Shown one piece after another: positions 13,273 through 32,229 of a stretch of 64,000 nt of DNA. Numbering within the stretch: the stretch's first letter is position 1; each line of letters opens with the position of its first letter. Under the pieces are notes generated by a model, which worked only from the letters and a program-made list of their open reading frames with translations, did not search any database and had not been told where the DNA came from. The translations under genes were made by a program, and so were the position numbers. Source of the DNA: Candidatus Bathyarchaeota archaeon (GTDB taxonomy: Archaea > Thermoproteota > Bathyarchaeia > Bathyarchaeales > Bathycorpusculaceae); contig CAVYRJ010000009.1 in the NCBI GenBank assembly GCA_963770935.1, positions 32,001-96,000 on the forward strand. Reading direction: 5' to 3'.

Positions 13273-13917
13273 TTAACTTCCTACTTTGAGAAGTTTGTTT
13301 TTCTCCTCATCGGATAATTCTTTGTAACCATACTGATCGATTACGATGATGTTGTAGTTGTTGCCGCTTGCCACGTCACGCTTCATGGCCGCGTTAACGG
13401 CTTTTGCGATAGTAGGTAAAACCTCATCAATGGTCAAGCCTTCACGGTACTTGTCCTCTAATATACCGTAAGCGACTGGCGAACCGGAGCCTGTGGCAAC
13501 AGATTTTTCCTCAGTTAAGCTCCCATAGGGATCCAAATTGAAAACGTGGGGGCCAGTATCATCTATGCCGCCAACCAATACCTGAGTTGAGAGGGGCACA
13601 TACCTTGCTGAAAACAGCAGGTTTGCGACTAGTCTTGCCGCTGAGCTTATAGGCATTGGACGGTTCATGTTAATCTTGTAGAGGTGCGCGTTTGCCGTCA
13701 GGATATCGACAACTTTCTGCGCGTCGGCGACTGTTCCAGCGATGGTCATACCCATGTGGTCGTCGATTTTATAGACTTTTTTGCCGAATTTATGCGCAAC
13801 GTAGTAGCCCATAGTTACTCGAGTGTCTGAAGCTAAGATTACGCCATCTTTGCAGACGACGCCAATCGTGGTTGTACCTTTTAGTACTAACTGGCTAGTT
13901 GTATTGTTTTGTGACAT
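13273..13917 (-). CDS. psmB: Proteasome beta subunit
   Basis: Propeptide LKG|TTTIG, ATGSGS, RDVASG. Confidence 0.95.
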   Translation of the reverse strand: MSQNNTTSQLVLKGTTTIGVVCKDGVILASDTRVTMGYYVAHKFGKKVYKIDDHMGMTIAGTVADAQKVVDILTANAHLYKINMNRPMPISSAARLVANLLFSARYVPLSTQVLVGGIDDTGPHVFNLDPYGSLTEEKSVATGSGSPVAYGILEDKYREGLTIDEVLPTIAKAVNAAMKRDVASGNNYNIIVIDQYGYKELSDEEKNKLLKVGS

Positions 13918-14087
13918 AGTTTGGTGCTCCCTAAAACTCTGTTTATCGGAATGCCATCCAATAGGAAGTAGCATCATGTAATCGTTCCGTGGGATTTATT
14001 AATATTTCGCCCAACCTCCCGAATCCAACGTGTTAGTTTGGAAGGGCGTTTCCTAAACATTTTTATGTTCGCTTGAAGGTTTCAATG

Positions 14088-14160
14088 CAATTGGCGGGTG
14101 AGTGGATTCTCCTACCCGTTCCGCCAAGAGAAAAATAAAACCCGGGAGTAGGGAGAAAAA
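14088..14160 (+). promoter_or_regulatory. Structured 5' leader of queT-queC; candidate preQ0/preQ1-type riboswitch
   Basis: Stem TTGGCGG/CCGCCAA, A-rich linker AAAAATAAAAC, loop TTCTCCTAC complementary to the RBS region GTAGGGAGAA; TATA-like TTTTAT at ~14061. Confidence 0.5.
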
Positions 14161-14164
14161 TCGC

Positions 14165-14692
14165 TTGAAAATACGTACAAAAGATTTAGCTTTAATCTCG
14201 ATCTATGCTGCACTCTATGCAGCACTTGTAGTTGTTCTTGGAGGATTCTCTTATGGACCCGTTCAGGTCCGCATCGCAGATTCGATGCTTGCGGCGGTCC
14301 CCCTGCTTGGTATAGCAGGAGTTTTGGGGCATACGCTTGGAGTATTCGTTGCTAACATATTCTCGCCACTTGGTCCAATTGACCTACTTAACACTGTACC
14401 TTCATTTGCCATGTCTTTTGTTGTGTACTATGTTTACAAATGGACAAGAAATGACTATACCGTTATCGGAACATGCCTAGCTTACTCTGCTGTCTTAGGA
14501 GTAACCGTTGGATCGATGTTATCTTATGTTTTATCACTGCCACTGCTTCCCACCATAGCGTATGTAGCCATTGGAAATGTTATTGCTAGTGTGCTAATCG
14601 GATGGACGCTGTTTAAGGTATTAAAGAAAATCGGGTTGTTCCGAAGGTGGTTTCCAGAAAGAGATAACAGAACCTATGAAGCACAAAATTAG
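14165..14692 (+). CDS. queT: QueT-family queuosine-precursor transporter
   Basis: AALYAAL, FSYGPVQVRIAD, ANIFSPLGPID; TTG start after GGGAG; upstream of queC. Confidence 0.85.
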   Translation: MKIRTKDLALISIYAALYAALVVVLGGFSYGPVQVRIADSMLAAVPLLGIAGVLGHTLGVFVANIFSPLGPIDLLNTVPSFAMSFVVYYVYKWTRNDYTVIGTCLAYSAVLGVTVGSMLSYVLSLPLLPTIAYVAIGNVIASVLIGWTLFKVLKKIGLFRRWFPERDNRTYEAQN

Positions 14693-14715
14693 AGATTTGA
14701 AGGAGAAGTGCATAG

Positions 14716-15372
14716 ATGAAACAGAACAAAAAATGCGTCATCGTTCTTAGTGGTGGACCAGACTCCGCCACGGTTGCCTACTGGGCAAAGGCGCAGGGTT
14801 ACCAAATCTACCCCATAACGTTCAACTATGGACAAATCGCCCTCAAAGAAACAGAATCCGCAAGAAAAATCTCTGAAAAACTCGGCACAACCACCAAAAT
14901 CATTGACCTCTCAGCACTTAAAGAAATCTTTATCAGTGTAACTTCGCTCTGTAACATCGACATTCCGTTAACCACTGAGTTTAGTGCCCCAATCATTGTG
15001 CCGTTTCGCAACGCCATATTCCTTTCAGCAGCAGTTGCTTACGCCGTCGCAGTTGGTGCTAACATGATCTTTTATGGTGCCCAAGGCTCAGATGAACCTT
15101 TTTACCCTGATTGCCGACGAGAATTTTATGAAGCGTTCGAGAAAGCTGCAAAACTGGGCACATGCCAAGAAATTACCATCCAAGCACCCTTCAGCGGCAA
15201 ACGCAAATCAGACCTGTTCAAAGCAGGCGCAGAGTTAAGGGTGCCTTTCGAACTCACATGGTCCTGTTACTTAGATAGAGCAAAACACTGCGGTAAATGC
15301 GAATCCTGTAATAACCGAAAAAAAGCCTTCCAAGAAGCAGGAGTAGCAGACCCAACGAAATATGAAAACTAA
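14716..15372 (+). CDS. queC: 7-cyano-7-deazaguanine (preQ0) synthase
   Basis: LSGGPDS, VPFRN, YPDCR, TWSCY..HCGKCESC. Confidence 0.95.
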   Translation: MKQNKKCVIVLSGGPDSATVAYWAKAQGYQIYPITFNYGQIALKETESARKISEKLGTTTKIIDLSALKEIFISVTSLCNIDIPLTTEFSAPIIVPFRNAIFLSAAVAYAVAVGANMIFYGAQGSDEPFYPDCRREFYEAFEKAAKLGTCQEITIQAPFSGKRKSDLFKAGAELRVPFELTWSCYLDRAKHCGKCESCNNRKKAFQEAGVADPTKYEN

Positions 15373-31857: not shown

Positions 31858-32229
31858 TTGCCGCTTACACCACTTTCCCCGTTTTTAGTTTGCAGATTGT
31901 TTAGTATATTTGCTTCTTGTTCTTTAAGTTAACTGCACCTTGAGGAGAAACACCTTGTTCCAAAAGCAGGCTTCAGCATGCTTGAATGGTTACTTTTGCT
32001 TTAAACATGTAAAATAATCGCTTGTATGGCGAAATTGAAAGTAGCTCGGAGAATTCTATAGCCCCTATTTAAAGTATTTAAAATTCACAGGCAAGGAAGA
32101 AGATAGAATAATCAGATAAAATCACGACTGTCTTTTGTTAAAAGCTCTGCCTGAACAACTGGTTGTCAGCTAAAGATCACGAAGCTACTATAGCCAATTG
32201 ACTGCTCACGTCGACTATACTTCAATTTG

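Follow-up and report, generated by a model that had tools for sequence, protein, structure and literature searches.

A covarying pseudoknot in archaeal queT leaders as a candidate 7-deazaguanine riboswitch

What does the short leader ahead of queT and queC do in the Bathyarchaeia? The question is raised by a locus on contig CAVYRJ010000009.1 of Candidatus Bathyarchaeota archaeon (GenBank assembly GCA_963770935.1), where positions 32,001 to 96,000 of the forward strand make up the 64,000-nucleotide (nt) stretch that was analysed and that we call the window. An initial annotation had proposed that the leader is an archaeal preQ0/preQ1 riboswitch, a preQ1-I type with longer helices, in which a pseudoknot sequesters the ribosome-binding site. 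The leader contains a real, widespread and covarying cis-regulatory pseudoknot that is specific to archaeal queT. It is likely, we think, that this pseudoknot stands for an undescribed class of riboswitch candidates for a 7-deazaguanine, probably preQ0, that would turn translation off from within archaeal queT leaders.

A covarying pseudoknot ahead of queT

Inspection of the window sequence found every element that the initial annotation had described, and at the same coordinates. All lie on the + strand. In the leader, 14088-14164, the 7-bp helix P1 is formed by UUGGCGG (DNA TTGGCGG, 14091-14097) and its perfect complement CCGCCAA (14121-14127), and encloses a loop of 23 nt, which pairs to the Shine-Dalgarno (SD) region to give an H-type pseudoknot. 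The 3' half of the loop, TTCTCCTACCCG (RNA form UUCUCCUACCCG), lies at 14107-14118, and the purine-rich segment that it meets, CGGGAGTAGGGAGAA (RNA form CGGGAGUAGGGAGAA), lies at 14143-14157, after the A-rich loop L3. Two helices result. P2a joins CCCG at 14115-14118, with its invariant core CCG at 14116-14118, to CGGG at 14143-14146. P2b joins the anti-SD strand UUCUCCUA at 14107-14114 to UAGGGAGAA at 14149-14157, which includes the SD, GGGAG, at 14151-14155. Checked pair by pair, the loop-SD helix of the window has canonical pairs in three blocks (4 + 4 + 4); its 3' strand bears two bulges, AG and G, and the SD is covered. Three segments stay unpaired in the pseudoknot model: the near-invariant GUGAG of L1 (14098-14102), the UU of L2 between P2a and the 3' strand of P1 (14119-14120), and L3 itself, GAGAAAAAUAAAACC (14128-14142), in which A14135, A14137-39, C14141 and C14142 are invariant.

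Is this structure more than an accident of one sequence? Taken by itself, the window copy is not distinguishable from chance: its fold z-score is -1.41, and 19 of 200 shuffles fold equally well. The evidence beyond chance is therefore comparative. Part of it is the recurrence of the motif before queT, described below; the rest comes from an alignment, A6, of 100 hits (94 distinct rows) that was fitted to P1 only, so that the count for the helix to the SD owes nothing to the fitting. Of the P1 cells 91.3% are paired, and sliding one partner lowers this to 37-65%. Five of its seven pairs vary on both sides, the closing pair changes from G-C to C-G in five distinct sequences, and no shuffle among 500 comes up to these figures. 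P2b (columns 21-28 with 65-70) is paired in 85.1% of cells, and five of its six pairs vary on both sides. The variants are diverse: UUCUCC/GGAGAA, GUCUCC/GGAGGC, CCUCCC/GGGAGG, CACCUCC/GGAGGUG, UCUCCCA/UGGGAGA and CCACC/GGUGG occur, as do GUCUCAUG/CA..GAGAC and UUUCCGAC/GUCGGAAA, the last with the SD itself altered, and helix G+C ranges from 0.46 to 0.71 between lineages. Taking the structure as a whole, the paired share of cells is 90.3% and falls to 45-60% on sliding. Both P1 and the SD-sequestering helix thus covary, and the stem and pseudoknot of the initial annotation are upheld among its relatives, where the leader is conserved. The same pairing is visible in predicted energies. A loop against its own tail averages -17.0 kcal/mol. 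The mean is -15.1 when tails are exchanged with other sequences, where none of 2000 permutations gets down to the own-tail value, and -10.4 against shuffled versions of its own tail.

The unpaired bases are as constrained as the helices. Among 92 distinct rows, the GUGAG that follows P1 reads G in 91, U in 92, G in 87, A in 86 and G in 90; the UU before the 3' strand of P1 (columns 34-35) is kept in 91 and 92; and the 3' end of L3, A.AAA(A/C)CC, is fixed in 91-92, which bears out the A-rich linker that had been predicted here. In all, some 15 positions outside the helices show 93-100% conservation from class to class, and yet L1 (6-12 nt) and L3 (8-15 nt) vary in length. GUGAG, being unpaired in the pseudoknot model, may be regarded as a candidate part of a binding core.

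What lies behind the motif? In the window it is queT (14165-14692), whose product is a QueT-family energy-coupling factor (ECF) S component of 175 residues (Pfam PF06177, 9.3e-23) with a TTG start 9 nt past the SD; the Pfam QueT match and the homologous proteins begin at the TTG region. Then, 23 nt past the queT stop, comes queC (14716-15372), for 7-cyano-7-deazaguanine synthase (Pfam PF06508, 1.1e-61). This linkage, too, had been put forward for the window, and it extends well beyond it. The first open reading frame (ORF) after the motif encodes QueT in 71 of 72 cases, and does so behind all six copies in the three genomes where the motif occurs twice. A second ORF was called in 52 loci, and in 33 of them it encodes QueC. 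Presence of the motif and presence of QueT agree in 16/16 genomes of the same order (G025-G040; 14 with both, two with neither) and in 5/5 genomes of other classes (four with neither, one with both). A side observation concerns the two genes: in a metatranscriptome library from a wetland, one contig of 151 nt covers 14595-14745, that is, the queT stop and the queC start. It is compatible with co-transcription of queT and queC, although such a contig need not reflect a single transcript and may stem from DNA carry-over.

The motif is widely distributed. When 41 relatives were searched for QueT by tblastn, 35 proved to have it; 30 loci were returned for inspection of the leader, 27 of which match a strict regular expression. 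Of the other three, the copy in G040 was later recovered by R1, a covariance model that was built on 27 leaders and annotated for no pairs but those of P1; the remaining two, L020 and L021, carry a different leader, to which we return below. Within the window's order R1 matches 115 of 151 sampled genomes, mostly with a single copy in each, and 84 of the 105 high-quality genomes within that sample. In a phylum-wide sample it matches 28 of 151, including families of other classes. It also matches 23 of 62 genomes in one other class, 5 of 17 in another, and a single genome, G307, of a further family. The motif occurs in three other classes of the phylum besides the window's own, and the genomes that bear it include metagenome-assembled genomes from wetland and soil. 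The leader has what is generally looked for in a riboswitch: it is a conserved, structured 5' leader with covarying helices, an invariant unpaired core and consistent linkage to the genes of one pathway.

A proposed switch, its probable ligand and the supply of 7-deazaguanines

Where would the transcript begin? A TATA-like box, TTTTTATG, lies at 14060-14067, as had been indicated for the queT-queC promoter. Among 97 distinct upstream regions, a simple regular expression finds a TATA-like hexamer beginning 31-36 nt ahead of the GGCGG of P1 in 67; it scores 20 as having none, and several of these have CTTATAA-like boxes at the same place. The spacing from TATA box to start is characteristic in archaea, and by this measure transcription would start near 14088, 1-4 nt before P1, in agreement with the earlier view that the leader begins at P1. 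The motif would then be the entire 5' untranslated leader, about 75 nt to the TTG at 14165.

How might such a leader work? We propose that the whole of this roughly 75-nt leader of a queT-queC operon would be a cis-acting RNA switch with two mutually exclusive folds, both of which would keep P1. In the ON fold, a GUGG/CUAC hairpin within the P1 loop would occupy part of the anti-SD and leave the SD free. In the OFF fold, the P1 loop would use its 3' half (UUCUCCUA-CCCG) to pair with CGGG...UAGGGAGAA, and the H-type pseudoknot made of P2a and P2b would bury the SD. The invariant unpaired GUGAG, UU and A.AAA(A/C)CC would form a pocket at the P1/P2a junction, a putative site for a 7-deazaguanine, with preQ0 the likeliest. 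Once bound, the ligand would make the pseudoknot more stable, and QueT, the salvage transporter, would no longer be translated, nor, along with it, QueC. PreQ0 is the product of QueC and the base inserted by archaeal tRNA-guanine transglycosylase (TGT); feedback by preQ0 on the transporter and on QueC would be the simplest logic.

The inner hairpin (14102-14115; GUGG 14102-14105 with CUAC 14112-14115) is present in the minimum-free-energy (MFE) fold of the window leader; its contribution on top of P1 is -4.3 kcal/mol. In the alignment (columns 13-17 with 26-30; GUGG/C(U/C)AC) it shares bases with the anti-SD and so excludes pairing with the SD. Pairing holds in 85.5% of its cells and drops to 41-69% on sliding; a U-A pair becomes G-C in four sequences, and a G-C pair becomes U-G in two sequences whose anti-SD base has changed to keep P2b. 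These modest signals point to it as the likely ON-state element. A different hairpin, CGGGU/ACCCG, had been suggested initially as the competitor that frees the SD. It does exist, and is 95.7% complementary across homologues, but we rejected it as a selected alternative: no pair of it changes on both sides, and the five G-to-C variants disrupt it, the compensation there being in P1 instead. The alternative that covariation supports is the one in the P1 loop. As a separate matter, when the leader is folded from the predicted start onward, its MFE structure pairs CGGGUGA of the P1 5' strand (14095-14101) with UCGCUUG (14161-14167), covering the TTG start codon; this pairing is probably specific to the window sequence, because the start regions of homologues differ.

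What would the ligand be? The genome of the window, 91% complete, has QueT, QueC and one TGT-family ORF. The last lies outside the window, on contig C8 at 129463-130971 on the - strand, and encodes 552 residues with a strong TGT domain (280 bits) and DUF5591, the domain known from ArcS. A second TGT-family gene was not seen in this 91%-complete genome, and neither QueD (PTPS, PF01242) nor QueF was found in it. The QueE profiles TIGR03365 and TIGR04508 gave only sub-threshold radical-SAM matches, archaeal controls also falling mostly below the cut-off. Among 81 genomes of the order with at least 90% completeness QueD was found in only four; QueC and QueT are common in the order. From the scarcity of QueD it would follow that most of these archaea are probably unable to build the 7-deazaguanine skeleton and have to take up a precursor by way of QueT, and the pattern suggests auxotrophy for the skeleton, and salvage, in the order. 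Since queT and queC are so often paired, the compound imported through QueT may be 7-carboxy-7-deazaguanine, the substrate of QueC. Because no QueF was found in the window's genome, the probable ligand is preQ0 rather than preQ1.

There is a more specific proposal, towards which we lean, if only by a little. The motif may be the first riboswitch class that is native to, and widespread in, archaea of the TACK group (the Bathyarchaeia together with three or more further Thermoproteota classes), sensing preQ0 or imported 7-carboxy-7-deazaguanine in a pocket unlike the modes, alpha, beta or gamma, seen in the three bacterial preQ1 classes, and governing salvage in lineages from which de novo synthesis of 7-deazaguanine has been lost. 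Why would this matter? If correct, it would add a structurally new 7-deazaguanine class where few archaeal riboswitches are known, and would show SD-based riboregulation of translation in archaea. It would also point to dependence, in abundant archaea of sediments and wetlands, on an external deazapurine precursor for archaeosine. The leader, at about 75 nt, is amenable to in vitro work, and the candidate ligands are commercially available.

Several observations weigh against the view of the leader as a ligand-operated switch, or against parts of it. The U at the position that confers specificity in preQ1-I means that recognition of a guanine-like face must differ, or that the ligand differs from the one we favour. 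The 3-bp core of P2a, CCG/CGG, is paired in 98.2% of cells and is invariant, and P2a is for that reason unproven by covariation. In two divergent homologues, L082 (in G033) and L084 (in G307), P1, CCG and the anti-SD/SD helix are kept and CAAAA replaces CGG, so that P2a is there either dispensable or replaced. Kinship among the genomes makes the shuffle counts overstate significance, yet the helix variants span several families and classes. The pairing of the inner hairpin, 85.5% of cells, is to be set against 82.8% in shuffles. The nested ensemble of the window leader gives the SD an unpaired probability of 0.24, and the MFE fold already holds the anti-SD/SD helix; with SD pairing predicted to be strong without ligand, the pseudoknot could be constitutive or controlled by a protein. 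Finally, no contig from the RNA libraries (four runs, contigs only) covers 14042-14212, a result uninformative on expression or transcription start.

Homologue, static structure or thermometer?

Might the motif simply be a preQ1-I riboswitch, much expanded and diverged, with the same fold and ligand, L1 lengthened to hold a full anti-SD and L2 shortened? The order of elements speaks for this, as it matches that given in PMC11625349: P1, L1, the 5' strand of P2, L2, the 3' strand of P1, an A-rich L3 ending AAA(A/C)C, and the 3' strand of P2 by the SD. A second leader also speaks for it. In five genomes of the window's family (L020, at 1419-1500 in G019, and L021, L153, L154 and L156), a compact leader of about 34 nt precedes QueT paralogues that are about 30% identical to the window's QueT, all five of which match Pfam QueT. 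It opens with a stem of 4-5 bp, (G)GUAG/CUAC(C), after which come UUU, then CCG, then a loop of 8 nt with AC at its end, then UUAAAAAAC; the C(C)GG that follows leads into the SD. By eye this is preQ1-I-like: there is UU after P1, AC before the 3' strand of P1, an AAAAAAC-C(C)GG tail and a CCG/CGG P2. The compact leader resembles the main motif in its downstream QueT, its taxonomic family, its AAAAAAC-C(C)GG tail and its CCG/CGG pairing beside the SD; it differs in its length of about 34 nt, in an L1 of UUU, in an L2 of 8 nt ending in AC, and in being without the extended anti-SD. Its pattern is found in four of 201 genomes of the order, three of which are among the family's four genomes that R1 does not match. 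Such a mutually exclusive distribution suggests that the two leaders serve the same regulatory purpose.

The sequences themselves, however, lack defining marks of preQ1-I. No family of Rfam 15 matches: preQ1-I (RF00522), preQ1-II (RF01054) and preQ1-III (RF02680), for which a scan had been envisaged at the outset, are absent at E <= 10 from window positions 13900-14300 and from nine diverse homologous loci, RF00522 is likewise absent from the compact leader, and the searches of all three sets returned only chance-level snoRNA or miRNA matches. One of these lies near the window leader: a match to snR39 (C/D-box snoRNA-like) at 13936-13981 on the - strand, of 18.3 bits and E 1.1, far under the gathering score, falls at the start of the divergent gene for a proteasome beta subunit, and is probably due to chance. 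The hallmark of preQ1-I, according to PMC11625349, is a specificity cytosine in the dinucleotide UC or AC just 5' of the 3' strand of P1. In the archaeal leaders that dinucleotide reads UU (92 rows), with U in the place of the cytosine in 92/92 distinct sequences. Nor is the next base, C36, free to read the ligand, because it covaries with G8 as a Watson-Crick pair. The aptamer, moreover, is about twice the size of preQ1-I. The description of the leader as preQ1-I with longer helices thus finds no support here, and we consider descent from preQ1-I, with retention of its fold and ligand, to be unlikely.

Equally doubtful, in our judgement, is a leader that answers to no ligand, whether as a constitutive SD-sequestering pseudoknot that lowers translation or stabilises the mRNA, or as an element operated by a protein or a trans-acting factor. 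The long anti-SD/SD helix, 3-4 + 6-8 bp, is predicted to form without ligand, as such a role would have it, and few metabolite riboswitches are known in archaea (PMC5473149). Why then should some 15 unpaired bases be fixed across several classes? Such a core is typical of a small-molecule pocket and is unneeded for plain occlusion. A mutually exclusive hairpin that tracks the anti-SD, and strict linkage to a transporter family whose bacterial members are under riboswitch control, likewise argue for a ligand.

One might think also of an RNA thermometer, with an SD helix that melts as the temperature rises. The SD is indeed sequestered, and helix G+C does differ between lineages (0.46-0.71). A thermometer, though, has no need of an invariant unpaired core or of a pseudoknot, linkage to queT has no obvious thermal logic, and the motif occurs in wetland and soil metagenome-assembled genomes; we regard this explanation as very improbable. 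Complementarity that arose by chance, or a coding sequence that lengthens the N terminus of queT back to the GTG at 14102, can draw on the in-frame ORF that begins there and on the insignificance of the single-sequence fold, but is scarcely credible, given compensatory substitutions in two helices, a Pfam QueT match and homologues that begin at the TTG region, and length changes in L1 and L3 that are not multiples of three and, with the compensatory changes, rule out the extension.

The archaeal leader compared with known riboswitches

Where does the proposed 7-deazaguanine switch stand among those already described? Known riboswitch classes that archaea use are very few, mainly thiamine pyrophosphate (TPP) and fluoride, according to PMC5473149. 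The word 'archaea' occurs 0 times in a 2024 review of the preQ1 family, and no archaeal queT, preQ0 or archaeosine riboswitch was found in the literature searched, a body from which supplements and most subscription journals fell outside the scope. In bacteria, preQ1-I and preQ1-II riboswitches control queT through SD-sequestering pseudoknots, according to PMC11625349 and PMC5372724.

The likeness to preQ1-I is one of architecture and setting. Both are H-type pseudoknots with an A-rich L3 that ends AAA(A/C)C and is expected to lie along P1; in both the 3' strand of P2 abuts or contains the SD; both go with control of queT and queuosine-precursor genes, and the logic that we propose is, as there, that of a translational OFF switch. 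The differences are of size and detail. The archaeal leader has about 65-75 nt to the roughly 34 nt of preQ1-I. Its L1, 6-12 nt, opens with the invariant GUGAG, its P2 of 3-4 + 6-8 bp buries the whole SD, and its L2 is UU, without the specificity cytosine of UC or AC. It has no covariance-model match, it is found in archaea, and its probable ligand is preQ0.

PreQ1-II (the COG4708/queT motif, RF01054) is described in PMC11625349 as a four-helix HLout pseudoknot with an inserted P4 hairpin, confined to the Bacillota and controlling translation only. Like the archaeal motif it precedes queT and takes up the SD in full in a helix of the pseudoknot, below the place where the pocket is presumed to be. 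The archaeal leader, unlike it, is without P4, has two crossing helices and a small inner hairpin, conserves different bases and gives no model match. To the model of preQ1-III (RF02680) it gives no match either. More distant parallels are the SAM-II and fluoride riboswitches, which also occlude the ribosome-binding site with a ligand-stabilised pseudoknot, and which differ in conserved core and gene context. Fluoride riboswitches occur in archaea too (PMC5473149). The nearest comparison is with the bacterial preQ1 switches: the archaeal leader would work like them, with an H-type pseudoknot, an A-rich L3 and a buried SD ahead of queT, but it carries a U where preQ1-I has its cytosine, is without the P4 of preQ1-II, and is recognised by the model of none of the three.

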